From a virus (Duplodnaviria; Heunggongvirae; Uroviricota; Caudoviricetes), in the IMG/VR virus record IMGVR_UViG_2531839667_000012: a DNA stretch of 32,021 bases; one strand, written 5' to 3'. Every line of letters begins with the position of its first letter. The stretch's first letter is position 1. The position numbers were made by a program, and so were the translations under genes. Shown one piece after another: positions 1-25,655 of this stretch. The notes under the pieces are model-generated. The model had not been told where the DNA came from, did no database searches, and worked only from the letters and a program-made list of their open reading frames with translations.

Positions 1-1200
1 ATGCTGACCGATACCAAGCTGAAAAACCTCAAAGCGCGGGAAAAACTTTATAAAGTTGCAGACCGTGATGGGCTGTATGTAACCGTATCTCCCAAGGGAT
101 TGGTGACGTTTCGCTATGACTATCGAATCAATGGTCGTCGTGAAACGTTAACGATTGGTCGCTATGGTGACGGTATTTCTCTGGCGCAGGCGCGCGAAAA
201 ATTAGTGGAAGCTAAAAAACGCGTAAATGCAGGAATATCGCCCGCTGGAGAGAAGCGTGACGGTAAAACAAAGCGAAAAGAAGAAAAGACACTCCACGAT
301 TTTACCGTCAGCTACATGAAACACACCCGGCTGGCGGACAGCACAAGGGCGATGAAGCAAAGCATTATCGACAGAGACATCACCCCAGTATGGGGGCGCA
401 AGCTGCTGTCAGAGATAACCCCCTCTCTTCTACGTGAGTATTGCGACAAGATAAAAGCGCGTGGTGCGCCAGCGACAGCGATTCAGGTTCGCAATATCGT
501 TAGCGCGGTGTTTAAGTTCGCCGCGCTTCACGGCAACTATTACCCCAATCCTGCCGAAGAGGTTTTACCGGCTTCAATTGCGACATTCGAAGCGCGCGAC
601 AGAGCGCTCAAACCAGAAGAGATAGGCTGGTTTTTCAATCAGCTTGAACAAACGGGTACATTACCCACCATCAAGCTGGCCATTAAATTGGTTTTATTAA
701 CGATGGTGCGTAAAAGCGAACTGCTGAACGCGCCGTGGGGCGAGGTTAATTTTAATGCCTGCCTTTGGACGATTGACGCTAGCCGTATGAAGGGATCACG
801 GGATCATAATGTTTACCTGTCCCGGCAGGCGCAGGACATTCTGATTGCTCTAAAAATGTGCGCAGGAAGCAGTGATTGGGTTTTACCTTCATGCAATCAG
901 TCATCGCATAAGACCATGTCGGCGGCGACCTTAAACCGGGTCATTAATCTTACGGTTAAGCAGGCGCAGGAACGGGGGATCAGGCTGGCGTCGTTTTCCG
1001 TTCACGATATGCGCCGAACAGCATCGACGTTATTACATGAGGCTGGGTTTAATTCCGACTGGATAGAAAAATGCCTCGCGCACGAGGAAAGAAGCGTCAG
1101 AGCCGTTTATAACAAAGCGGAATACGCAGAACAGCGCCGCGACATGTTGCAGCAATGGGCGGATATGATTGATGGATGGATCAAGCAATACCGCCCGTGA
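1..1200 (+). CDS. int: Tyrosine site-specific integrase, P4/CP4-57 type (N-terminal arm-binding domain, HxxR box, C-terminal catalytic Tyr region)
   Basis: 399 aa ORF; N-terminus LTDTKLKNLK...GLYVTVSPKG typical of P4-family integrases; HDMRRTAST and AVYNKAEY motifs near the C-terminus. ATG is at window position 1, so the true start could lie upstream. Confidence 0.9.
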   Translation: MLTDTKLKNLKAREKLYKVADRDGLYVTVSPKGLVTFRYDYRINGRRETLTIGRYGDGISLAQAREKLVEAKKRVNAGISPAGEKRDGKTKRKEEKTLHDFTVSYMKHTRLADSTRAMKQSIIDRDITPVWGRKLLSEITPSLLREYCDKIKARGAPATAIQVRNIVSAVFKFAALHGNYYPNPAEEVLPASIATFEARDRALKPEEIGWFFNQLEQTGTLPTIKLAIKLVLLTMVRKSELLNAPWGEVNFNACLWTIDASRMKGSRDHNVYLSRQAQDILIALKMCAGSSDWVLPSCNQSSHKTMSAATLNRVINLTVKQAQERGIRLASFSVHDMRRTASTLLHEAGFNSDWIEKCLAHEERSVRAVYNKAEYAEQRRDMLQQWADMIDGWIKQYRP

Positions 1201-1203
1201 GTG

Positions 1204-1470
1204 TTATGCCGGGATTTTGGTGCCAGAGCGCTTTGGGGCTTTGGCCAGATTCTTCTGTACCGCGTTATCAGTAGGGTGATAATTATTTTCCTGCCGTGCC
1301 TTGAGCCAGCGTTCCACTTCCTCTTTGTCCCACGCGACGGCGCGCTTTGTCAGCGCAAAACGCTTGGGAAACAGGCCTTTTTGTTCCAACGCATAAATCG
1401 TACTTTCAGAGAGTGGCACCATCTGTAAAAGCACGTTTTTTCTAATGGCAATTTTCATTGTTTTCCCCAT
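1204..1470 (-). CDS. alpA: AlpA/Vis-family small DNA-binding protein (excisionase-like regulator)
   Basis: 88 aa ORF with LSESTIYALEQKGLFPKRFALTKRAVAWDKEEVERWL, matching the AlpA/Vis pattern; convergent with int, stops 3 bp apart. Start may instead be the ATG at 1458 (GGGGA upstream). Confidence 0.8.
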   Translation of the reverse strand: MGKTMKIAIRKNVLLQMVPLSESTIYALEQKGLFPKRFALTKRAVAWDKEEVERWLKARQENNYHPTDNAVQKNLAKAPKRSGTKIPA

Positions 1471-1819
1471 GCCGTTCGGCGTTCAGGTGTTGCCACTGCG
1501 CTGCAATCCGCTTCATCACCGCATTCCCCTCCGGGATCACCTCCTGCGGCTCTTTCATCAACATTACCCGCCCCCGGATAACGATCAGAGCCTGTTCCAG
1601 CAGGTCATAGTCCAGATAACAGAGGTCGGGAATATCCAGTTGCCACACGTAGCCATTCCATGCTGAAAGCAGCACTTGCGCGGCGGCGCGTCCACCGCTG
1701 GTTTCTGTGAGCGCAACGTCGACAAGGGCATTGACAGCAAGGCGGTATTCCTCCGGTGTTACGCAAAGTCTTTGCCGTTGGGTTTCTTGTGTTGCCAGAG
1801 CCTTAAATATTTCGTTCAT
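1442..1819 (-). CDS. Hypothetical protein, downstream of primase in the same operon
   Basis: 125 aa ORF, backbone-like composition, tightly packed between primase stop (1829) and alpA; no motif recognised. Confidence 0.5.
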   Translation of the reverse strand: MNEIFKALATQETQRQRLCVTPEEYRLAVNALVDVALTETSGGRAAAQVLLSAWNGYVWQLDIPDLCYLDYDLLEQALIVIRGRVMLMKEPQEVIPEGNAVMKRIAAQWQHLNAERHGENNENCH

Positions 1820-1828
1820 AACATTTCC

Positions 1829-4483
1829 TTATCGTTGAAAAACCCAGCACTTCACCGTCGCCGGGCGGCGCGATGCGGCTGGGTAACGGCGGTTAAATTC
1901 GGCGTTAATGCCGCTGTTAACCGTTCTGACTTCAATAAACTTGTGGGTACGGCTGGTTTTTAGCACTCGCTTCAAATCGCTGACCGGCGGGATCTGCTGG
2001 CGGCGTTCGGTAGCCAGTTGAATAAAGTGGTTAAGGTTGACGGCGATAAGCTGTTCATCGCGCGAGTGGTTAAGCTGCGGTTCGTCGTCGCCATCGAGGA
2101 AGTCGAAAATATCCCAGAACTCCTGCACCAGAGGATGATCGGCGCTGATGGCCTGCTGGCGCTCCAGACTGAGGCGGATAAACATTTCTCTGGTTGCCTG
2201 TAGCTGCTCCTTCGTGACCGGAATAACCAGCGCCAGCGCGTCGAGCAGCGCCATAAGCTGGGCGTGGTTTTTAATGATGCGGATATGGCGAATATCGGGG
2301 TGGGCGTGAAGCTGCTGCTCGTATAGCGGGATCTGCCGGTTGACGCACTCCAGCACGGCCTGTTCCGCCAGCGCTGCCTTCAGCATAAAGCCGGAAAGCT
2401 GTTCCACCGGCAGGCGTTCGAGCTGCTCGGCAGCGACCTTGGTCTGAGTATTCTGGCCGCTGCGGTCGGTGTACAGGTGAATAATACGTTCCAGCACCGG
2501 GTTAGAGGCGCTGACGTCGGCGTTTTGCGCAATCACAATCGCGCCCCGGAACGGAGGTTCATAGGTCTCGTTACCGCTGTTACGCAGACCGCGAGACCGC
2601 ACTGACCGCCCGTTGTAGGCGGTTTTTAGCTCTTCCCAATCAAAGCCGCGTTGCTTTGCACCCTCCTGATTACGGTCACCCTCGATCAGCACCACCGGCA
2701 TGTTCGCCACCTGCGCAAAGTTGCGCGCGCGGGCGGCCAGCGTTGATTTAGACGGATCGAAACCTTCATAGTCGCGTCGGCCTAACAGCTTCCAGAGAAA
2801 CTCTATCAGCGTGGTTTTGCCGCTGCCGGGTTCGCCAACGATTTCCAGAAACGGAAAGCTCTTGTGCTTGTCGCGGATCTGTTCGGCAAACATCGTCCCA
2901 AACCAGAACGCCAGCGCCACAAAGCCCTTTGCGCCAAACGCCTGCCAGAGTAGCTGGGGCCACTGGCTGTCCATCTGTTTTAAATTGTTGTTCAGCGTCA
3001 GGCTGACCGACTGGTTCAGGCTTTTAAGGCTGAGTTTGCCCATGTCGAAGAAGTCTTCTTCGTTGAGTGTGTACAGCCGACCATCGCGAACGGCCAGATC
3101 GTTGAACACGTAAGCGCGGTATTCTTTGCTGTAGCCGATAAAATCAGTGGTCTGGACAGTTTTGATTTTGGGAAGCTGCTTGAGCAGCAACTTATCTAAC
3201 TGCTGACTGGTGCCGGTGAAGATGCCGCCCTGCGCGATATGCAGCAGGCGCTTTTTGAATTCTGAGCCGCTGGAAAGTTGGGAGCCGGTGAAGGTGTTTT
3301 TTATCGGCGGCGTGTCGTCCGGGAAGTTAATGCGAAAGTAATACCAGCTTTCGTCGGTAATGGTGTTGGCCTGATAGTAGAGGGCGGTCGGGTAGCAGTT
3401 GGCGATCTCCACCACGGCGGACGACTCTTTCAGCGCCTTCTGTTTCAGCTCTTCTTCGCTCAGGTCGTCATTGGAGAATGAGATGCTTTCATGCACCCGC
3501 ATATAGCGGTCAATATCCAGCTTGAACCAGAACAGGCGGCTGTCAAACTCGAAGTGGAACTCTTTACGCTCTGTCTGTTCGTGCATCAGCAGGGCTTTGG
3601 CGGCGGGAGAGGTGGCGATCAGCAGAGAGCCGTAGTAGCGGTATTTCTTCACCAGCTCCGGGTTAAGCCGGTCGCGCTGGTGCAAATCGTTCCAGTCCAG
3701 CTTGCTGCGGGAATGCGGCGTCTGTGCGGCGGCTGCGCTCCAGCCTTCGTCCCGGCTGCGCTTTACCCATCGCCGGGTATAGCTCATGCCCGCCTTGTCG
3801 TTATCCAGCGCCCAGACCAGTAAAGGGCGCTTTTTATCCACGAACAGCGCGGCCAGTTGACTTAACGCCTGCGCCGGATAGTTGTTGCAGGTCATCAGGG
3901 AAACGGCGGCGATGCCGTGGTGATGCAAGGCGATAGCGTCAAAAATGCCTTCAACCAGCCAGATCTCCTGTTGTTCCTCCAGTTTCAGCGTTGGCAATTG
4001 CCACCATAGCCCGCTGTAAGCGCCGTGAAAGTTGGCTTTGCGATCGCCGAAACGTTGTGGACGGTCAACGATCCGCTCCCACCACACGCCGTCAGCCAGC
4101 GGGAAACGTACCGTCGCTGAACCGATATCACGCCGTGGGTCGTAGTAGTTCTCTTGAGTGTAACAGTCACGGATCAGCGAAAGGTCAAAGCCGCGCATCT
4201 CGCGCAGGTAGGCATCGGCGGCGGCCTGTGGGTTTTCCGGGGTTGGGGGATATCTGTCTGACCAGCTTTCAAACAGATCCGGGTACATATCTTTGATGTG
4301 GATTTCGGCATTGCATTTATTCAGGCGACCGCAGCGCAATACCCACGGGCTGATGGCATTGGTGTACAGCTCTTTTTTCTGGCAGTCCGGGCAGATGCCC
4401 TGCCGCAGCCAGTCGCCCTGTTCTTTAAAGGAAAAGTCGGCCAGCAGTCGCCGCGTAATTTCCTGATGAAGTTGTGGTTGCAT
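1829..4483 (-). CDS. Primase-helicase (N-terminal zinc finger, DnaG-like toprim motifs, C-terminal P-loop NTPase), P4 alpha-like in function
   Basis: 884 aa ORF; CPDC...C cysteine cluster near N-terminus; LVEGIFDAIAL and WALDNDKAG toprim-like motifs; Walker A GEPGSGKTT; AAAGG SD about 8 nt upstream of the ATG at 4483. Confidence 0.85.
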   Translation of the reverse strand: MQPQLHQEITRRLLADFSFKEQGDWLRQGICPDCQKKELYTNAISPWVLRCGRLNKCNAEIHIKDMYPDLFESWSDRYPPTPENPQAAADAYLREMRGFDLSLIRDCYTQENYYDPRRDIGSATVRFPLADGVWWERIVDRPQRFGDRKANFHGAYSGLWWQLPTLKLEEQQEIWLVEGIFDAIALHHHGIAAVSLMTCNNYPAQALSQLAALFVDKKRPLLVWALDNDKAGMSYTRRWVKRSRDEGWSAAAAQTPHSRSKLDWNDLHQRDRLNPELVKKYRYYGSLLIATSPAAKALLMHEQTERKEFHFEFDSRLFWFKLDIDRYMRVHESISFSNDDLSEEELKQKALKESSAVVEIANCYPTALYYQANTITDESWYYFRINFPDDTPPIKNTFTGSQLSSGSEFKKRLLHIAQGGIFTGTSQQLDKLLLKQLPKIKTVQTTDFIGYSKEYRAYVFNDLAVRDGRLYTLNEEDFFDMGKLSLKSLNQSVSLTLNNNLKQMDSQWPQLLWQAFGAKGFVALAFWFGTMFAEQIRDKHKSFPFLEIVGEPGSGKTTLIEFLWKLLGRRDYEGFDPSKSTLAARARNFAQVANMPVVLIEGDRNQEGAKQRGFDWEELKTAYNGRSVRSRGLRNSGNETYEPPFRGAIVIAQNADVSASNPVLERIIHLYTDRSGQNTQTKVAAEQLERLPVEQLSGFMLKAALAEQAVLECVNRQIPLYEQQLHAHPDIRHIRIIKNHAQLMALLDALALVIPVTKEQLQATREMFIRLSLERQQAISADHPLVQEFWDIFDFLDGDDEPQLNHSRDEQLIAVNLNHFIQLATERRQQIPPVSDLKRVLKTSRTHKFIEVRTVNSGINAEFNRRYPAASRRPATVKCWVFQR

Positions 4484-4571
4484 TGCCAGTACCTTTATTC
4501 AGGTAATACTTACCCGTCGCATAGACACGTTGTTTATGCGTTGTGGTTGTGAGTCTTTTATTTACTGAGCG

Positions 4572-4802
4572 TTACGCGATTTTCTGTTTTTGCAGAAATT
4601 GCCCGCGTGTGGATAGTGGTATGTGTATCTTAGGATTCGGGCAACCGCTCGGTACCACCGTTCCCATCACGGTTTCCATTGCGATAAATGAAAACGAACA
4701 GTTAACGTTTTTGCACTGGTAATAGAGCTTACGTACCAGCGGTGACATATATTCGCTGCTGCGAATTATCGCCTTACCGTCGCAGTGTGGGCATTTCATC
4801 AT
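4572..4802 (-). CDS. ogr: Ogr/Delta-family zinc-finger late transcription activator
   Basis: CPHCDGKA...YYQCKNVNCSFSF matches the Ogr C-x2-C...C-x4-C pattern; ORF track begins at a GTG (4820), but an ATG at 4802 with AAGGAG upstream is the more likely start. Confidence 0.85.
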   Translation of the reverse strand: MMKCPHCDGKAIIRSSEYMSPLVRKLYYQCKNVNCSFSFIAMETVMGTVVPSGCPNPKIHIPLSTRGQFLQKQKIA

Positions 4803-4838
4803 GTCCGATCTCCTTACCACTTTTAACTAACTGAAACA

Positions 4839-5045
4839 CTAACGCTTTTCGTTAACGGACTGACGAAATAGTGTGATGCCGTTCAAAAAAATGATTCTTG
4901 CCATGCTGGACATCGAACGGTTCTGATCCAGCGCTAATGCTTCCAGTTCCGCGATTTCAGCGGGGAGCAGGCGCATTGCCACCGGTTTGTTCGACATCAC
5001 CCCGCGAGGTGCTCGTGAGCGTAAGACGTTCTCATTTGTTTTCAT
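4839..5045 (-). CDS. Small ribbon-helix-helix (CopG/Arc-like) regulator, first gene of the leftward operon (Cox/Apl-position analogue)
   Basis: 68 aa ORF; KPVAMRLLPAEIAELEALALDQNRSMSSMARIIF fits an RHH beta-strand plus two helices; divergent from the XRE gene; start may be the internal ATG at 4997. Confidence 0.55.
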   Translation of the reverse strand: MKTNENVLRSRAPRGVMSNKPVAMRLLPAEIAELEALALDQNRSMSSMARIIFLNGITLFRQSVNEKR

Positions 5046-5054
5046 GGTGGTATA

Positions 5055-5077
5055 TTGTGGTTATTAACATTACACAA
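5055..5077. promoter_or_regulatory. Inverted repeat TTGTG-N13-CACAA in the 55-bp divergent intergenic region; candidate operator of the switch
   Basis: Sequence ttgtggttattaacattacacaa lies between the divergent RHH (minus) and XRE (plus) genes. Confidence 0.35.
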
Positions 5078-5100
5078 AGCGTATAGGAAAAATATTCCCT

Positions 5101-5466
5101 ATGTCAACCGAGAAACAGGAAATATTTTACATTATTGGGGCTAGGTTGCGAGAAGAACGTGAGCGACTTGAGAAGAGCCAGAAATTTATGGCTGAGGCAC
5201 TTGGGGCGGATATCAAAACATGGAACAACTATGAGCGGGGGGCATCGGTGCCTGATGCTCATAAATTAACCATTATAGCGGCAGTGGGTGTAGACGTTCT
5301 GTATGTTCTGACTGGCAACCGCACGCCTGTAGTTACGTTGTCCAGTAAAGAGAGTGTGTTGGTCGAAAATTACCGTTCTGCTACGCCAGAACACCAGTCC
5401 ACCCTTGACACGGTTAGCGCTGCGCTTGCGCAACCGGGTGTAGGGAAGAAAGCTGGAGGGGCGTAA
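5101..5466 (+). CDS. XRE-family helix-turn-helix regulator (candidate immunity repressor / operon regulator)
   Basis: 121 aa; N-terminal IGARLREERERLEKSQKFMAEALGADIKTWNNYERG is an HTH_XRE/Cro-C1 pattern; AGGAAA upstream; stops 5 bp before the next gene. Confidence 0.8.
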   Translation: MSTEKQEIFYIIGARLREERERLEKSQKFMAEALGADIKTWNNYERGASVPDAHKLTIIAAVGVDVLYVLTGNRTPVVTLSSKESVLVENYRSATPEHQSTLDTVSAALAQPGVGKKAGGA

Positions 5467-5470
5467 TTTT

Positions 5471-5905
5471 ATGTTTAATACAGTATCTCTTATTATTGTT
5501 GTGATTTTGCTATGTGCTGTCGTTTCAGCTCTTATTACTCAGAAGAGAGAAAAGAAAAAAGGGAGCGTAGATAAAGTTAGTGATGAAATTTTACGTATCA
5601 GGTCTCTTGGGAAAAAACAACCGCTTTATTATTCTAACGCAACCACAAGATATGAAGAAATACCGCCGTCTGTTCAAAAAAATAGAAAAATTAATATACT
5701 GAAAATAGGAAAAGTAAAATATATCGCTTTCAGTTACATAGATAGTAAAGGTGATTTTACTCACCGTGAGGTGGATGTTTCATCTATAGATAATGAATAT
5801 TTACAAGGGTATTGCCACTTAGCTAAAGAGTATAGAACATTTCGCCTTGATAGGATTCAGGGGGATGTTATTTGTAGAGATACAGGGGAAGTTATTTTAA
5901 ATTAA
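5471..5905 (+). CDS. Membrane-anchored WYL-domain protein (N-terminal TM helix, C-terminal WYL-like ligand-binding domain)
   Basis: 144 aa; hydrophobic N-terminus VSLIIVVILLCAVVSALI followed by KREKKK; C-terminal YIAFSYIDSKGDFTHREVDVSSIDNEYLQGYCHLAKEYRTFRLDRIQ resembles the WYL signature; strongly AT-rich. Confidence 0.6.
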   Translation: MFNTVSLIIVVILLCAVVSALITQKREKKKGSVDKVSDEILRIRSLGKKQPLYYSNATTRYEEIPPSVQKNRKINILKIGKVKYIAFSYIDSKGDFTHREVDVSSIDNEYLQGYCHLAKEYRTFRLDRIQGDVICRDTGEVILN

Positions 5906-5929
5906 CGATAAATATTAAGTGAGGATGTT

Positions 5930-6331
5930 TTGAATACATATAATTTATTTATTAGTCATTCATGGAAATATAATGATACATATGAATCATTGGTACGTCT
6001 TTTAAAAGGAAGAGGATATTTTGATTTTAAAAATTACTCAGTACCAAGAATAGATCCTATCATTGGTGCTAATAGCCATTCAGCTTTATATTCAGCAATT
6101 CAAAATCAGATGCGACCGTCTCAGGTAGTTTTGATTTTAGCCGGTGTATATGCATCATATAGTACTTGGATTGATGCAGAAATAAGGATAGCCAAGGATT
6201 GGAAAAAGCCAATTATCGCTATTGAACCTTGGGGATCTGAGAGGACATCCAAGGTAGTAAAAGATGCAGCGAACAGAATTGTAAAATGGAACTCAGATAG
6301 TATTGTTAAAGCAATTAGAGAGTTGGCATAA
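5930..6331 (+). CDS. Minimal TIR-like domain protein (predicted NAD+-processing signal generator)
   Basis: 133 aa; begins LFISHSWKY (TIR betaA-like) and contains YASYSTWIDAEI, resembling the TIR SxWxxxE catalytic-glutamate motif; TTG start with GAGGA upstream; AT-rich. Confidence 0.6.
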   Translation: MNTYNLFISHSWKYNDTYESLVRLLKGRGYFDFKNYSVPRIDPIIGANSHSALYSAIQNQMRPSQVVLILAGVYASYSTWIDAEIRIAKDWKKPIIAIEPWGSERTSKVVKDAANRIVKWNSDSIVKAIRELA

Positions 6332-6341
6332 GGATTAACTG

Positions 6342-7307
6342 ATGAGAAAGGCTCTGTTTGTTGGGATTAATGAATATGCGGAAATTTCTCATCTTGCGGG
6401 ATGTGAAAATGATGCTATGAAGATGTCTGCGGCATTGTCCAGACATGCGGATGGGCGTCCTAATTTTGAAGGGAAAGATTTGATTCACCGTGAGCAGATG
6501 CCTGTAACTAAGGTATTGCTTGAGCAAGAAATTCAGACTTTATTCAGTGGTTCAGCAGATATAGCTTTATTATTCTTTGCTGGGCATGGGTATTTTGATG
6601 AAAATATAGATGAAGGGGTTATCATTCCTCATGATTACTCTTCTCATCAAAGCAATGGTGTGAGAATCAGTGATATCATGCTATGGGCATCGAGAGCAAC
6701 CAATATTAAAAATAAAATAATAATACTAGATTGCTGTCAGGCGGGCGCTGCCGGACAAGTCAGGAACTTAAGAGGTGGAGACTCCATTCTTGCTGATGGC
6801 ACAACAATATTAACCGCATGTCAGCGTGATGAATATGCGCAAGAGCAGGATGGTCAGGGTATTTTTACAGCCTTAATGTTGGAGGCTTTATATGGCGCAG
6901 GTGCTAATATATTGGGGCATGTAACACCCGGTAGTTTGTATAGCTTTGTTGACCAAGCATTAGGTGCATGGGAGCAGCGACCGGTATTTAAAACAAATGT
7001 ATCCAGATTCGTAGTGCTAAGAGAAGTCGGGCCAAGAATCCCGTTAGAAACATTAAGGCAATTACCTGATTGGTTTGCTAGTGGTAGTGCTGAATATCCT
7101 CTTGATCCTAGTTACGAGCCTGATTCAGGAGCACCAAATGAGGATAATGTAAGGATATTTCGGCAATTACAAGCCTGTAATCGTCATGGCCTTGTTGAAC
7201 CTGTTAACGCAGAACATATGTATTATGCAGCGATGAATTCAACTGCATGTAGATTGACCGCTTTGGGAGCCTATTATAGAAAACTGGCAGAGAAAAGGCG
7301 TTTTTGA
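6342..7307 (+). CDS. Caspase-like protease (peptidase C14 / metacaspase-like His-Cys dyad) with C-terminal domain of unknown function
   Basis: 321 aa; KALFVGINEY start, FFAGHGYF (His-Gly) and IILDCCQAGAAG (catalytic Cys) in caspase order and spacing; AAGGA SD 7 nt upstream; AT-rich. Confidence 0.8.
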   Translation: MRKALFVGINEYAEISHLAGCENDAMKMSAALSRHADGRPNFEGKDLIHREQMPVTKVLLEQEIQTLFSGSADIALLFFAGHGYFDENIDEGVIIPHDYSSHQSNGVRISDIMLWASRATNIKNKIIILDCCQAGAAGQVRNLRGGDSILADGTTILTACQRDEYAQEQDGQGIFTALMLEALYGAGANILGHVTPGSLYSFVDQALGAWEQRPVFKTNVSRFVVLREVGPRIPLETLRQLPDWFASGSAEYPLDPSYEPDSGAPNEDNVRIFRQLQACNRHGLVEPVNAEHMYYAAMNSTACRLTALGAYYRKLAEKRRF

Positions 7308-7332
7308 TTAATCGGGTGTACGGGGGTTGGTT

Positions 7333-8436
7333 TCAATCCAGCCCTAGCTCACACTCCACCGCCGTCCCATACCCACTGCTGTTATCCAACGTATGCACGC
7401 ACCGCGTAATCACCCACGCGGTGCCGTCAATCTCCGCCTTAAACCCCTTCACCTGCACCGACAGTTCCGGGAACAAATCGGGCCGTCCGCGCGCAAGATT
7501 CAGGCTGAACGTTGCCGCGCCGCGCTGTAGCTGCTCCCACGCGCTTTTTGCCGCTCTGTAGGCGTTATTTTTGTTGGCATAGGTGTGGCGCAGCACCTTG
7601 ATATTTCCCTCTTCGCCAACCATCACGTTATCAGCATTGAATGAGGCGTCTGACGGCGGTGATTCTGTTGGTTGCGTTTGTGGACGGTTTTTCCGTGTCT
7701 TGCGCTTCATGTCAGTGGACTGCTTTTTTGCCTGCCGTGTATCCAGCCAGTAGGCCGTCACACCGGTATACGCCTCCCTGTCCGCGATGCTGAACCGGTG
7801 GCTGTCGCCGTCCTCGCGGGTAATGGTTGCGACCGGCAGCGGTTTGCCGCTGGCACTTTTACCGGAACCTGTCGGCATTAGCAGCAGAGCATCATTTTTC
7901 ACGCAGGCGATAGCGCCGTGCAGTTGCGCCAGCCGGGTCAGGAAGGAGGCATCGGATTCGTTAGTCTGGTCAACGTGCTCAATGGCGATCCCAGCCAGCT
8001 CGCCGCTGACGGTTGATTCCAGCTTATGACGCGCCGCCACGGTTTGCACAATCGCGCCCAGCGTCACATCATGGTAGCTCTGTTCCCGTTTAACGTTCAG
8101 CGAATCGCGGAAATCGGCGCTGCGGGCGCGGAGGCTGAGTACGTCCGGTGCGCCGCTGTGCTCCAGTTCGTCCACTGTGAAGACATTCTGGTGCATCACG
8201 CCGTCACCCTTCCAGCCCAGAGAAACCGTTAGCTTTTCGCCCTTTGCCGGAAACGCCAGCAGGCCGTCGCTGTCGTCCAGTTCGAGCTGCAGTTCGTCGG
8301 CCTCAAAGCCCCGGTTGTCGGTGATACGCAGGCTGATTAAGCGGTTGTCCAGATTCCGCGTAATGTCCTTACCGTTCAGCACCACGCTGTACTCCGGCTG
8401 CGGCTGGGCGTTTAAGAGTGCGTTTAACATCGTCAT
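7333..8436 (-). CDS. D: P2 gpD-like tail protein (late control gene D)
   Basis: 367 aa, sequence and position (after U, before ogr) match P2 gene D. Confidence 0.85.
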   Translation of the reverse strand: MTMLNALLNAQPQPEYSVVLNGKDITRNLDNRLISLRITDNRGFEADELQLELDDSDGLLAFPAKGEKLTVSLGWKGDGVMHQNVFTVDELEHSGAPDVLSLRARSADFRDSLNVKREQSYHDVTLGAIVQTVAARHKLESTVSGELAGIAIEHVDQTNESDASFLTRLAQLHGAIACVKNDALLLMPTGSGKSASGKPLPVATITREDGDSHRFSIADREAYTGVTAYWLDTRQAKKQSTDMKRKTRKNRPQTQPTESPPSDASFNADNVMVGEEGNIKVLRHTYANKNNAYRAAKSAWEQLQRGAATFSLNLARGRPDLFPELSVQVKGFKAEIDGTAWVITRCVHTLDNSSGYGTAVECELGLD

Positions 8437-8861
8437 AGTCCGTCTACCATCGTGATGATGTCGCCCAGCAAGCCACCCAGCTTCGGCGGATCGACACGTT
8501 TTAACGCCAGCGTAAACTCAATGCGCCGGGCCGCACCGTCGCGAAAAAAGACGCTCCGGGTGACGTTCAGACTCTCAATCACAAACCAGCCATGCAGCGA
8601 TCCGGTGCCTTCAATCAGCGGCCAAGCCATCCCCTGATCGGCCATCTTTCGCAGGAAAAACAGGGTAAATCGCCCGCCGGTCAGTTCCGGCAACAGCACG
8701 CCGTTTAGCGTAATGGTTTCGTCACCCACGCCGATAAACTGGCTGGCCGGACGTAGCCCCACGCGGGAACTGGCAGGATGCCGCCACGCTACGGCGTGCT
8801 GCATATCCTGATAGGGCAGGGTTTTCAGGCTGAAGACGAACAGCCCCAGTACCATCATCAT
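8433..8861 (-). CDS. U: P2 gpU-like tail protein
   Basis: Start taken at ATG ATG ATG (8861) preceded by AAGGAGG that overlaps the T stop; the longer ORF in the track overlaps T and is unlikely. Confidence 0.85.
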   Translation of the reverse strand: MMMVLGLFVFSLKTLPYQDMQHAVAWRHPASSRVGLRPASQFIGVGDETITLNGVLLPELTGGRFTLFFLRKMADQGMAWPLIEGTGSLHGWFVIESLNVTRSVFFRDGAARRIEFTLALKRVDPPKLGGLLGDIITMVDGL

Positions 8862-8871
8862 AAGAGCCTCC

Positions 8872-11721
8872 TTAATCAATATCGCGCAGGCTGCTGCGGG
8901 TTCTGGCGGCATTCTGCCGTTCGCGCTTGTCCAGTTCCTGCGCCACCAGTTTCGCCAGTTGTTGTTCATTCATGCCGGGAGCAGCGTGGATGTGAATAGT
9001 GACAGGCCCGCCGCTGGCTGCCGGTGCAGAAAGGGATGCTGGCGCGAGCGGGGCGCGATTATCCGGCAGGGCGGCGATAGGGGGCATGGCGACAGCGGCG
9101 GCGCTGAGCGTCAGCCCGGCACCGGCGGCGATTAACTGCTTCGAAAGTTGCCCTACGCTGGCCAGCGCCGTTTGCGTGTTGCCCTCAATCCCGACCGCCA
9201 GCCCGTCCACGGTATAGCGGCCCATTTCGGCGAATACCCGCGACGGTGAGTGAATACCGAGCTTGTCCTTGAACCAGTTGGAAATATTGCTGCCCAGATC
9301 CAGCACGCCCTGCTTAATCGCTTCCCATTTGTCGAAGATCCCCTGTTTCAGCCCTTCCATGATATTGCCGCCGATCTCGGTAAAGCGGGTGGACAGGTTA
9401 CTGAAACTGTTCAGAACGTTATCCCAGACTGTGGTAAACACCGTGGACAGGTTCCAGTTGGTGAAAAAAGCAATGATGGAGTTCAGGGCGGTGCTGACGG
9501 TGGTTTTAATTCCCTCCCAGACGCCAGTGGCGGTAGTGGTAATGCCGCTCCAGATTTGCCCCAGAAATGCCACCACGCTGTTCCACGCCTCAACGGTCGT
9601 CGCTTTGATAGTATCCCAGTGCTGGTAAATCAGACCGGGCAGCGTCCAGTTCAGCAGGATATTCACCAGCCCGTCCCAGCAGCCGAAGAGAAACGTTTTA
9701 ATCCCTTCCCAGACGGCGCTGGTTGTGGCTTTTACGCTGTTCCACGCATCGCTGCATACCTGCTTAAAACTATTCCAGAGCGCGGCGAACTTCGGCCCCA
9801 GCCAGTCCCAGTTACTCCAGATCCAGATGGCGGCACCGGCGATCAGCGCAATCACCGCCAGAATCGGGTTAGCCATCATTGCGCGACCCAGCCAAATTAC
9901 CGCTTTTCCCGTGCCTTTAAAGGCATTCGCCAGCAGCCCCAGCGCGCTGCCGCCCTTAATACCGAGCACCGACAGGCTGAGTTTTAGCGCCGCCATCGGG
10001 GCGAGGATACCGGCCAGCGTCAGGGATATGCCACCGAGCGCTACGGCGAACGCGCCGATCGCCATGCCGATTTTCACCAGCGTGGCGGTTAGCTGCGGGT
10101 TGGCCTTCATCCATGCGCCGATGGACTGTAAAACGCCGGTCATACGTTGGGTAATGCTGCGCAACGGGCTGTCTACCGATTCGAACATCTCAATACCGAG
10201 ATCTTCCCACGCTGAGTCAAGATTCTGGAGATCCCCCTTCATATTATCGGCCATCGTTTTGGCAACTTTGCCAGCGGTACCGAGGGAGGCTTTCACCTGT
10301 TCGGCATAGGCTTCAATGCGCTGCGACGGATCGAGTGACGCCTGTTTGTCGAGCAGTTCCATCATAGCGGAGGAGGCTTCCACGCCGAAAATATCCTTGA
10401 TGTAGGACATTTTCTTCACGTTGCCGACACCGCCGATCCCTTGCTTCTCAAATGCGGCGGAGATTTCTGCCAGTAGCTGCGGCATCTCTTTCATTTTCCC
10501 GGTGCTGTCTGCCACCGAGACTTTCAGATCTTCCAGCGCGGCGGCGGCTTTTTTCGGCTGTGATGCCAGCCGCAACAGCGCCATACGTAAGGATGTACCT
10601 GCCTGCGATCCCTGAATCCCTACGTTGCCCAGCATCCCGACCATTGCTGACATGGTTTCAAAATCCTGCCCTGCCGCCTGCGCAGCCGGGCCAACGTATT
10701 TCATGGTTTCACCCAGCATCTGCAGGTCGGTATTAGACGTAGTGAACGTGAAAGTCAGCGCGTCAGCCATGCGTTGCATCTGGTCTGCCGGGATTTTATA
10801 GGCGCTCTGGATGTTGGAGGCGATATCGGAAACCTGTGCCAATTGCGTATCCATCCCCGCCGCTTTCGCTAGATCCAGCATGTGCGGCATCGCCTTTTCG
10901 ATTTTGTCAGGCGAATAACCTGCCATTGCCAGAAAGCCTTGCCCCTGCGCTACGTCGTTAGCGGTGAAGCTGGTTGATGCGCCCAGCTCGCGTGATTGCA
11001 CCCGCAACCGCTTCAGTTCGTCAGAATTTTTATCGGTACGGGTTAGCGCCTGTACGCGCGACATGCCCACGTCGAAATCGTAGCCGGGCATCATTACCCG
11101 CGCGCTGCCGTAAAGCATACCCACGCCGGTGGCCGTCGTGGTTGCGCCGAATCCGGCCAGTTTGTTGCGGGCGTCCATTGCTCCTGCGTAGCTATTTTTT
11201 GCAGAGTTCATCCGCTGCTGCTGCCGGTTTAGCCGTTCCAGTCGCCTGCGCTGTTCCTCCATGCTACGGTTAGCACTCTCCAGTCGTTGCCGTAGTTCAC
11301 TCTGGCGCTGGCTGAGATTACGGGTATCGATACCAGCGTTGCGCAGTACGGTGCGGCTACGCTGCTGGGCTTGAGTAAGCTGACCATGCCGTTCTTTAAG
11401 TCGCCGCGCCTCCTGCTGAGCACGTTCAAACTCCCGACGCATCGCTGCCGTGGGCGCAGTGCTGCTTTGCATTGCCGTGGCCAGCGCCCGGACGCGATCC
11501 TGCGCGCTATTAAGCTGGTTGCCGGTGACGGCGACATCGCGCGCCAGCTTGCGGTAGCCATCGATTTGTCCGGCCTGTTTGTTCAGGTCTTTGACCTGCT
11601 GCTGCGCCGCTTTCAGCGCTCTGGCGGTGTCGCTACTGCTTTGCGTGACGGCTTTTAGCGGGCGGGTGATTTTATCTACGGCGCTGAGTAGTACCTGTAA
11701 ACGAAGGTTTTGTGTGCTCAT
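8872..11721 (-). CDS. T: Tail tape measure protein (P2 gpT-like)
   Basis: 949 aa; coiled-coil-rich N-terminus, Gly/Ala-rich hydrophobic central segment; start ATG overlaps E' stop (ATGA). Confidence 0.9.
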   Translation of the reverse strand: MSTQNLRLQVLLSAVDKITRPLKAVTQSSSDTARALKAAQQQVKDLNKQAGQIDGYRKLARDVAVTGNQLNSAQDRVRALATAMQSSTAPTAAMRREFERAQQEARRLKERHGQLTQAQQRSRTVLRNAGIDTRNLSQRQSELRQRLESANRSMEEQRRRLERLNRQQQRMNSAKNSYAGAMDARNKLAGFGATTTATGVGMLYGSARVMMPGYDFDVGMSRVQALTRTDKNSDELKRLRVQSRELGASTSFTANDVAQGQGFLAMAGYSPDKIEKAMPHMLDLAKAAGMDTQLAQVSDIASNIQSAYKIPADQMQRMADALTFTFTTSNTDLQMLGETMKYVGPAAQAAGQDFETMSAMVGMLGNVGIQGSQAGTSLRMALLRLASQPKKAAAALEDLKVSVADSTGKMKEMPQLLAEISAAFEKQGIGGVGNVKKMSYIKDIFGVEASSAMMELLDKQASLDPSQRIEAYAEQVKASLGTAGKVAKTMADNMKGDLQNLDSAWEDLGIEMFESVDSPLRSITQRMTGVLQSIGAWMKANPQLTATLVKIGMAIGAFAVALGGISLTLAGILAPMAALKLSLSVLGIKGGSALGLLANAFKGTGKAVIWLGRAMMANPILAVIALIAGAAIWIWSNWDWLGPKFAALWNSFKQVCSDAWNSVKATTSAVWEGIKTFLFGCWDGLVNILLNWTLPGLIYQHWDTIKATTVEAWNSVVAFLGQIWSGITTTATGVWEGIKTTVSTALNSIIAFFTNWNLSTVFTTVWDNVLNSFSNLSTRFTEIGGNIMEGLKQGIFDKWEAIKQGVLDLGSNISNWFKDKLGIHSPSRVFAEMGRYTVDGLAVGIEGNTQTALASVGQLSKQLIAAGAGLTLSAAAVAMPPIAALPDNRAPLAPASLSAPAASGGPVTIHIHAAPGMNEQQLAKLVAQELDKRERQNAARTRSSLRDID

Positions 11722-12139
11722 GATTCAACACCGCTGCGCTGGCGGGCCTGCTCCCGCCAGTAAAGGGTTTCGCCAAGGGTTAATGCGTCCATCGCGGATA
11801 GCGGCCAATGGAAGATGACGGCTATGTCGCCTTGAGCATCCTCTATGCGTCCGGGGTATCCGCTGCTTCCGGCGAGGTCTGAGGCAAAAAACCGACAAGC
11901 GCCGTACCGAAGGCTGTCAGGTCGATAAAATCCAGTTGCGCCACCTCATGCTTATTCAGCGGCGGTGCGGTGATGCGCGGCAGAACGTTGGTGAGTGCAT
12001 CTACGTTAAGGCTTAACAGCTCCACCAGACTGACACCGCGCAGGTCGCCGCCCAGCGGTTTACGGATCTGGAACTCGACAAATTCGGTTTCACCGCGTTT
12101 CAGGGGAGTATTCAGGGTAACGGTTTTACGTTCGCTCAT
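11718..12139 (-). CDS. E': E+E' fusion produced by programmed -1 ribosomal frameshift at T_TTT_TTG (minus-strand heptamer at 11885-11891)
   Basis: In-frame codons GGT TTT TTG give the slippery heptamer; hand translation of the -1 frame continues about 57 codons to a TGA at 11718-11720 overlapping the T start codon, giving a fusion of about 141 aa as in P2. Confidence 0.75.
11843..12139 (-). CDS. E: Tail assembly chaperone E (P2 gpE-like)
   Basis: 98 aa ORF directly upstream of T, downstream of FII. Confidence 0.85.
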   Translation of the reverse strand: MSERKTVTLNTPLKRGETEFVEFQIRKPLGGDLRGVSLVELLSLNVDALTNVLPRITAPPLNKHEVAQLDFIDLTAFGTALVGFLPQTSPEAADTPDA

Positions 12140-24535: not shown

Positions 24536-24635
24536 AGCATTAGCCTCTTTAATGTTGTGGTCAGAGGCCCGTTGGTGTTGGTAGCACCTGCGGGCTTCGT
24601 TCGTTTAAGGGTTGCAAAACATCACGTAATTGCGA

Positions 24636-24676
24636 TGTAATTACAACTACATCATTCTAAGGATTTTGTAATTACA
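24636..24676. promoter_or_regulatory. Two copies of the perfect 10-bp palindrome TGTAATTACA (24636-24645 and 24667-24676); candidate operators in a divergent promoter region
   Basis: Second copy ends immediately before the ATG of the Arc-like gene; an additional half-site-like GTAATTG at 24626-24632. Confidence 0.55.
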
Positions 24677-24847
24677 ATGTCAAGTGAAAAGGCTAAAACA
24701 GATCAGTACCAACTTCGTCTTGCTCATGAATTTAGAAAGCAGCTTGAAGAACAGGCTCGTAAAGATGGAGATACCTCTCTCGCAACATGGATAAAACGCG
24801 TTTTGCGTAAGGAACTTCAGTCACGAGGTATTGAACCCAAAGGATAA
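24677..24847 (+). CDS. Arc/MetJ-type ribbon-helix-helix repressor (56 aa; below the ORF-track size cutoff)
   Basis: Hand translation MSSEKAKTDQYQLRLAHEFRKQLEEQARKDGDTSLATWIKRVLRKELQSRGIEPKG; QYQLRLAHEF...SLATWIKRVL resembles Arc beta-strand and helices. Confidence 0.6.
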   Translation: MSSEKAKTDQYQLRLAHEFRKQLEEQARKDGDTSLATWIKRVLRKELQSRGIEPKG

Positions 24848-24948
24848 TTACGGAGATATCAAGCAGCGCTAAGAAGTTAGGATTATTTGTTCAGCCCAGA
24901 TTAGTCGATATGCACTGATTAACTTAAACATTGTGTGTAGGAGGTGTT

Positions 24949-25602
24949 GTGGATATTGAATTTTTTCTTAAAGAGCGCACAAGATTCGTTACTTATTTCT
25001 ATGAAACGGCTGCTGCACCATTTGTTAACATCATGAATGATATTGAGAATGAAGTGGAACCTTATATTCAGCCGTATGGTGAGAGTGATGAACCAGCTTT
25101 TTTAGATGAATGGTTAGATGCAAAGTCGGGATTAGAAACCTGTGGGCACCATGCATTATCGATGCTTTCGTCTTCTCTTCAGTTGTACCTGAAGGCGTGG
25201 GTAGATCGCTTAGGATATCATAGCGTGAAATCTGATATAAATTTCAAGAAGGGTTGGTTTAATGGCTATCGTGAAATTTTCAACAAAATTGAGTTGGAAA
25301 TGGCAAAATGTCCTGCAAATTTGGAAATAATTGAACAAATTCCCTTGGTGAGAAATCGTGTCCAGCATCCTGAGGAACTTACCTCAATTAATATTTCTCA
25401 CTCAAAAAATGACTTGGAAAAATATCCTCGCCCATACTTTATTCAGGAGTGTGAGCTACTTTTGGCTTCCGAACAGGAAGAAAAATCGTGGTTATTCCCA
25501 CCTACAATATCCCCGACTAAAGAGAAAATATTCGAAGCTATCAGAAATGTTGAAATGCTGTGCTCTTGGTTAGAGTCTGAGTATTGGTCGGCTCTTGACT
25601 AA
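24949..25602 (+). CDS. Hypothetical protein, AT-rich cargo gene under the Arc-like regulator
   Basis: ORF in the track starts at TTG 24931; GTG 24949 follows a GGAGG SD (short spacing). About 217-223 aa; no motif recognised. Confidence 0.5.
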   Translation: MDIEFFLKERTRFVTYFYETAAAPFVNIMNDIENEVEPYIQPYGESDEPAFLDEWLDAKSGLETCGHHALSMLSSSLQLYLKAWVDRLGYHSVKSDINFKKGWFNGYREIFNKIELEMAKCPANLEIIEQIPLVRNRVQHPEELTSINISHSKNDLEKYPRPYFIQECELLLASEQEEKSWLFPPTISPTKEKIFEAIRNVEMLCSWLESEYWSALD

Positions 25603-25637
25603 ATGTAGAATAGAGTAAGTCAGCGTCAAATGAAAAC

Positions 25638-25655
25638 AGCCCGACGAATCGGGCT
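25638..25655. terminator. Hairpin between convergent genes (candidate bidirectional terminator)
   Basis: AGCCCGA-cgaa-TCGGGCT stem-loop; T-run follows on the minus strand (GTTTTCA), weaker on the plus strand. Confidence 0.5.

Follow-up and report, generated by a model that had tools for sequence, protein, structure and literature searches.

The window, by which we mean the whole 32,021-nt stretch of DNA analysed, is a P2-like prophage that carries on one side genes for an integrase, AlpA, a DUF7673 protein, an 884-aa Toprim primase, Ogr and an Arc-like protein. Along its length, the early genes are followed by an HTH repressor-like gene, a cargo segment, gpD, gpU, the tape measure gene and the remaining tail and head genes. 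The early region (positions 1–5050) looks P4-like, and the remainder of the window consists of P2-like tail and head genes. [quoted passage not shown] The features are listed in Table 1.

Table 1. Positions of the features described in the window, with the cargo slot of three related prophages
Feature	Position	Strand	Evidence
HTH repressor-like gene, 121 aa, heading the same-strand gene string	5101..5466	+	HTH_31, RstR-family and PHROG repressor families
Variable cargo slot, between repressor gene and tail gene D	5448..7336	.	Backbone homology break, GC
TM-WYL gene, 144 aa	5471..5905	+	Pfam WYL, E 1.1e-7
Shine-Dalgarno-like GAGGA, 4 nt before the TIR TTG start	5921..5925	+	Read from the sequence
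Two-gene TIR-caspase module	5927..7311	+	Stretch over which other TIR-caspase loci are homologous in DNA
TIR gene, ThsB-type, 133 aa + stop, TTG start	5930..6331	+	ORF, Pfam PF08937, EcTIR identity
Caspase-like protease gene, 321 aa, system effector	6342..7307	+	Pfam PF00656, E 1.1e-14; PHROG 18397
56-aa Arc-like ORF in second low-GC island	24677-24847	+	
223-aa ORF in second low-GC island	24931-25602	+	No Pfam or PADLOC family
Cargo slot in relatives	L016 6466-9503; L017 6463-8576; L010 3803-7836		

The cargo slot was distinguished from its surroundings by its GC content (30–45% as compared with 55–60% in the flanks, as read from the GC profile) and by a break in backbone homology. In blastn comparisons with two E. 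coli prophages (L016 and L017), homology ended at positions 5436/5447 and returned at 7337/7368. The related E. coli prophages are integrated beside guaA. The slot of one of them holds genes for a DUF6037 protein, a nucleoid-associated protein and a hypothetical protein, that of another holds genes for a nucleoid-associated protein and a GTP pyrophosphokinase, and that of an Edwardsiella relative (L010) holds genes for a BRCT protein, a DUF6037 protein, a TIR-caspase pair, a 351-aa protein and an ASCH protein. By these comparisons, this family of P2-like prophages has a hotspot for variable cargo in the segment that separates the repressor gene from gpD. Megablast searches of positions 5000–7400 and 7333–12000 against a collection of phage isolates returned no match, indicating that the prophage lineage is not among the sequenced isolates at an identity of at least about 85%. 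In the Edwardsiella relative, the final ~47 nt of the repressor-gene region were present twice (L010 3686–3798 and 4299–4345, both compared with window positions 5339–5451), once at the end of the repressor gene and once past the BRCT gene; this duplication may be a recombination scar of cargo insertion.

The protein encoded by the TIR gene carries LFISHSWKY at residues 6–14 and YASYSTWIDAEI at residues 74–85, the latter including W80 and E84. The earlier note, made from the letters of this DNA, had described a 133-aa frame with the first of these motifs and a Trp followed four residues later by a Glu in the second, and both descriptions were borne out. The start codon is ATG in the Citrobacter, Pantoea, Paraburkholderia and lambdoid-prophage orthologues and TTG in that of Edwardsiella, and the NCBI gene calls in E. 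coli give the same 133-aa product (P0001). A chance reading frame opened from the TTG was considered and ruled out, since orthologues begin with ATG at this position. That the gene starts with TTG and has no promoter of its own bears on its expression level and counts against the type IV Thoeris reading given below. When the protein was compared with family models, Pfam ThsB_TIR (PF08937) matched residues 7–104 with an E value of 2.4e-16 (60.4 bits; cut-off 21.2), the PADLOC ThsB models matched at 4.9e-12 and PHROG 6988 matched over the whole length at 4e-50, which is the outcome that the HMM comparison with ThsB and TIR models proposed in the earlier note would look for. Pfam TIR_2 gave a weak match (E 0.001) under its cut-off, and no NCBIfam model matched. 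A word-index search returned 2019 homologues at E<=1e-3. Taken together, the family matches and the number of homologues show that the gene at 5930–6331 is real, far beyond chance. The best 120 of the 2019 homologues were 60–100% identical and nearly all 131–137 aa long, so that a small size is the norm of the family; the protein is indeed below the usual size of bacterial TIR proteins and has no fused domain, as previously remarked, yet this does not set it apart from its relatives. A full-text literature search for the peptide LFISHSWKY returned no match.

An alignment of 39 TIR homologues showed that S9, H10, S11, W12, G72, V73, Y74, W80 and E84 were invariant. E84 is the predicted catalytic residue, with W80 four residues upstream. 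The AlphaFold model built on this alignment (pLDDT 83.8) consists of strands alternating with helices, and it superposes on solved TIR domains, its nearest solved structures being bacterial TIR and ThsB proteins; the structural comparison that had been proposed earlier thus returned a predicted TIR fold. In the fold searches, nucleoside 2-deoxyribosyltransferase, DNPH1 and MilB enzymes scored equal to TIR domains. This would be compatible with an N-glycosidase of that kind acting on nucleotides instead of a signalling TIR, but equal scores are expected for the superfamily, and we regard the glycosidase reading as having a negligible chance of being correct. The profile of the TIR family aligned W80 and E84 with the W and E of BcThsB and 8fz9. 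The description of the motif as plant-TIR-like did not hold, as the protein was not nearer to plant or TIR_2 proteins than to other TIR families. BcThsB (6lhy), EcThsB (8wcf) and MTH538 (1eiw) all belong to PF08937, as does the window TIR, with which they share 11–22% identity, and MTH538 was the only match when the single TIR sequence was searched against the PDB. The PDB copy that we searched apparently holds no solved component of type IV Thoeris. Type I ThsB proteins differ from the window TIR in that they are longer (160–194 aa), produce 1''-3' gcADPR and have the SIR2-SLOG protein ThsA as their partner instead of a caspase.

The product of the gene that follows comprises a Peptidase_C14 domain (residues 1–216) with His82 and Cys132, and a conserved C-terminal domain (residues ~217–321). 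It matched PHROG 18397 with an E value of 3.8e-204, while an NCBIfam model of the EACC1-associated type matched under its cut-off and a sequence search of the PDB gave weak metacaspase matches only. Compared with the caspases that follow homologous TIR genes in six other loci, the protein was 48–88% identical over its full length. In the resulting alignment of seven sequences, both H82 and C132 were invariant, and the C-terminal 100 residues were strongly conserved across all seven loci. In the gapped Paraburkholderia caspase, the counterpart of C132 is residue 129, in agreement with C129 of PsCaspase. The earlier reading of 5930–6331 as a TIR enzyme is supported; the caspase gene beside it had been overlooked.

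To delimit the conserved unit, we compared the window by blastn with five other TIR-caspase loci (L010, L011, L015, L008 and L013). DNA homology began at 5927–5939 and ended at 7289–7312, which defines the TIR and caspase genes alone as the mobile module. TIR proteins of 65–85% identity were found in Edwardsiella, Citrobacter, Pantoea, a plasmid-like metagenome contig, Paraburkholderia and a lambdoid prophage, and in each of these six contexts the TIR gene directly precedes a gene for a caspase of 319–321 aa, in constant order and with gaps of 1–10 nt. The identical TIR was present on about 40 E. coli contigs (39), where the genes are always arranged as in the window. Among complete E. coli genomes, a TIR-caspase pair of ~70% DNA identity, annotated as TIR and caspase, was found in 24 of 5426 by a search in distant mode, megablast having returned none of these pairs. 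The exact allele was absent from the complete E. coli genomes as searched by megablast, in which the repressor-gene flank alone was matched, in four genomes. In the Paraburkholderia locus (L004 6610–8341), the pair is followed by genes for a 328-aa uncharacterised protein and for a second, shorter Peptidase_C14 protein of 261 aa, and a HEPN gene lies near the pair.

A short TIR encoded directly ahead of a caspase-like protease is the composition of type IV Thoeris (Rousset et al., bioRxiv 10.1101/2024.10.24.620036; Science 2025). To detect the system, Rousset et al. require a short stand-alone TIR that matches Pfam ThsB (PF08937) or TIR_2 (PF13676), and the window TIR matches the former. Those authors showed that the two-gene operons of E. 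coli 328 (EcThoeris) and Pseudomonas sp. 1-7 (PsThoeris) suffice to protect against T6, that defence is lost with PsTIR E79Q or PsCaspase C129A, and that metabolites of infected cells carrying EcTIR switch on PsCaspase. The activator was isolated from cells expressing EcTIR and identified by NMR as N7-cADPR; EcTIR produces it on T6 infection, the C-terminal domain of the caspase is its proposed binding site, and the activated caspase cuts proteins after arginine (Rousset et al.). The caspase has been named ThsE in later literature, where a T4 sponge, TadIV-1, is a published phage counter-measure to the system and the sensing of T6 is reported to depend on the capsid vertex protein. A Thoeris_IV model exists in DefenseFinder, with 573 systems in about 46,000 genomes.

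We compared the window TIR with the EcTIR and PsTIR coding sequences given in Table S2 of Rousset et al. EcTIR and the window TIR are both 133 aa long and align without gaps, with 102 of 133 residues (77%) identical; they share the W-x3-E motif, including E84, and in both loci a gene for a 321-aa caspase-like protein comes next. The two proteins differ at 23% of residues, and DNA identity over the TIR gene is ~67%, while related E. coli loci are 68–71% identical to the window in DNA over the TIR-caspase pair. Unlike EcThoeris, the window copy has a TTG start and sits behind a WYL gene in the slot of a P2-like prophage. PsTIR is much more distant (~20% local identity, 21 of 76 aligned columns) and is likewise short (123 aa); its W stands directly before the E, whereas the window TIR has W-x3-E, and its catalytic E79 aligns with E84. 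The two-gene order is shared, and PsCaspase and the window caspase each begin with MRKAL.VG. The homology of the window effector to the tested EcCaspase and PsCaspase is indirect, running through the caspase that follows an EcTIR-like TIR (L015, 71% identity). In every property of type IV Thoeris that sequence can address, the window pair agrees with the known system. Since a short TIR gene is directly followed by one for a caspase-like protease, we conclude that positions 5930–7307 very probably hold a type IV Thoeris pair, carried as cargo of a P2-like prophage, of which the 133-aa TIR would be the half that makes the signal.

The product of the window TIR is inferred to be N7-cADPR, as the protein is 77% identical to EcTIR, whose expression in cells yielded the purified compound. 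With the 23% of residues that differ, the product could in principle be another one. Production by the window TIR of some other signal from NAD+, such as a further cADPR isomer, His-ADPR or 2'cADPR, would be in keeping with this divergence and with the fact that related TIR clusters can belong to different Thoeris types; however, its partner is a type IV caspase effector with a conserved C-terminal domain, and EcTIR and the very divergent PsTIR both activate PsCaspase, suggesting that the type of effector predicts the signal better than does the TIR sequence. We therefore consider a different signal very unlikely, and N7-cADPR is the product assumed below.

[quoted passage not shown] The same layout was present in Pantoea and metagenome loci (L007–L009 and L013, 3629–6826), with the order PycTM, PycC, TIR, caspase and a fifth gene of 140–143 aa, and the TIRs of these loci were 76–78% identical to the window TIR. 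The window differs from Liu-DS6 in having neither the Pycsar genes nor the fifth gene, and its upstream neighbour is the TM-WYL gene. The 143-aa gene downstream of the pair in Pantoea, which was considered as a WYL homologue, proved instead to be the fifth gene of the Liu-DS6 operon. In L007–L009 and L013, the operon adjoins relaxase and HxsD/radical SAM genes.

The TM-WYL protein has no HTH; a single transmembrane helix at its N terminus is joined by a basic linker to a WYL domain at the C terminus. A word-index search found only the protein itself, and an exhaustive phmmer search found 538 remote relatives, none of them characterised, which are mostly 140–240 aa long with one to three N-terminal TM helices and the WYL domain at the C terminus. 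The nearest relative (55% identity) likewise sits in the cargo slot of a prophage of this family. From its position on the same strand, 24 nt before the TIR gene and 4 nt after the repressor gene, the WYL gene is probably co-transcribed with the pair; it also shares the low GC content of the TIR gene, and the exact WYL protein was found on 43 contigs as compared with 39 for the exact TIR. WYL domains are, moreover, predicted ligand sensors tied to defence systems (PADLOC WYL matches). These observations would fit a three-gene variant, confined to one prophage lineage, in which the membrane-anchored protein is a functional third Thoeris component. It could sense what the TIR makes or a cue from the phage, and either regulate the pair or work as a further effector in the membrane; a tethered sensor of N7-cADPR or of a phage-derived ligand could tune or extend the response. 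In contrast, DNA homology to every other TIR-caspase locus starts at 5927, past the WYL gene; none of the six other TIR-caspase contexts (0/6) has a WYL gene; the nearest relative in the same slot precedes a DUF3644 gene and not a TIR gene; and the two-gene EcThoeris and PsThoeris operons suffice for defence. Both the three-gene variant and the sensor role are, in our judgement, unlikely. Since it is absent from the other TIR-caspase loci and its nearest relative precedes a DUF3644 gene, we treat the WYL gene, on this comparative evidence, as separate cargo outside the conserved two-gene module. The TM-WYL proteins could be a family of stand-alone prophage defence or exclusion proteins.

Promoter-like sites were found at 5029–5093, upstream of the repressor gene. 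The scan of 4500–7600 for promoters and terminators gave only consensus-level matches, with 10 promoter-like sites as compared with 7.9 expected from shuffled sequence; at a count so near to expectation, it says little apart from the candidate sites at 5029–5093. Considering the short gaps in the four-gene string and the sites before the repressor gene, it is likely that the cargo is expressed in the lysogen from the repressor operon. We propose that read-through from this operon would probably give the lysogen its supply of the TIR and the caspase, and that infection by a second phage would activate the 133-aa TIR. Using E84, the TIR would cleave nicotinamide from NAD+ and cyclise the ADP-ribose onto N7 of the adenine, yielding N7-cADPR, which would bind the C-terminal domain of the caspase and switch on its His82/Cys132 site. 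The active protease would then cut many cell proteins after arginine, stopping phage production by abortive infection. Anti-phage protection of this kind, proposed by analogy with the tested operons, is supported by the context, as the slot holds defence-like genes in relatives and Pycsar adjoins the pair in Pantoea.

Published work already describes type IV Thoeris, with N7-cADPR as its signal, a caspase as its effector and TadIV-1 as a phage counter-measure. The window adds a natural example, a module borne by a P2-like prophage in the cargo slot that comes straight after the repressor gene, in keeping with the established view that temperate phages protect their lysogens by means of the defence systems they bring. 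The window allele, at 77% identity to EcTIR, could aid comparative work on how a 133-aa TIR senses phage. The TM-WYL neighbour is the sole part with potential for discovery, the locus otherwise offering little that is new in that respect.

Two further observations concern the prophage outside the slot. The centre of the repressor-like gene (5078–5274) had no DNA match to the E. coli relatives, which are otherwise 93–99% identical, and this looks like a swap of immunity specificity. A second low-GC island (39% as compared with ~58%) lies at ~24600–25650 in the late region, on the strand opposite to that of the flanking phage genes; with its two open reading frames (Table 1), it may be a second cargo (moron) slot.
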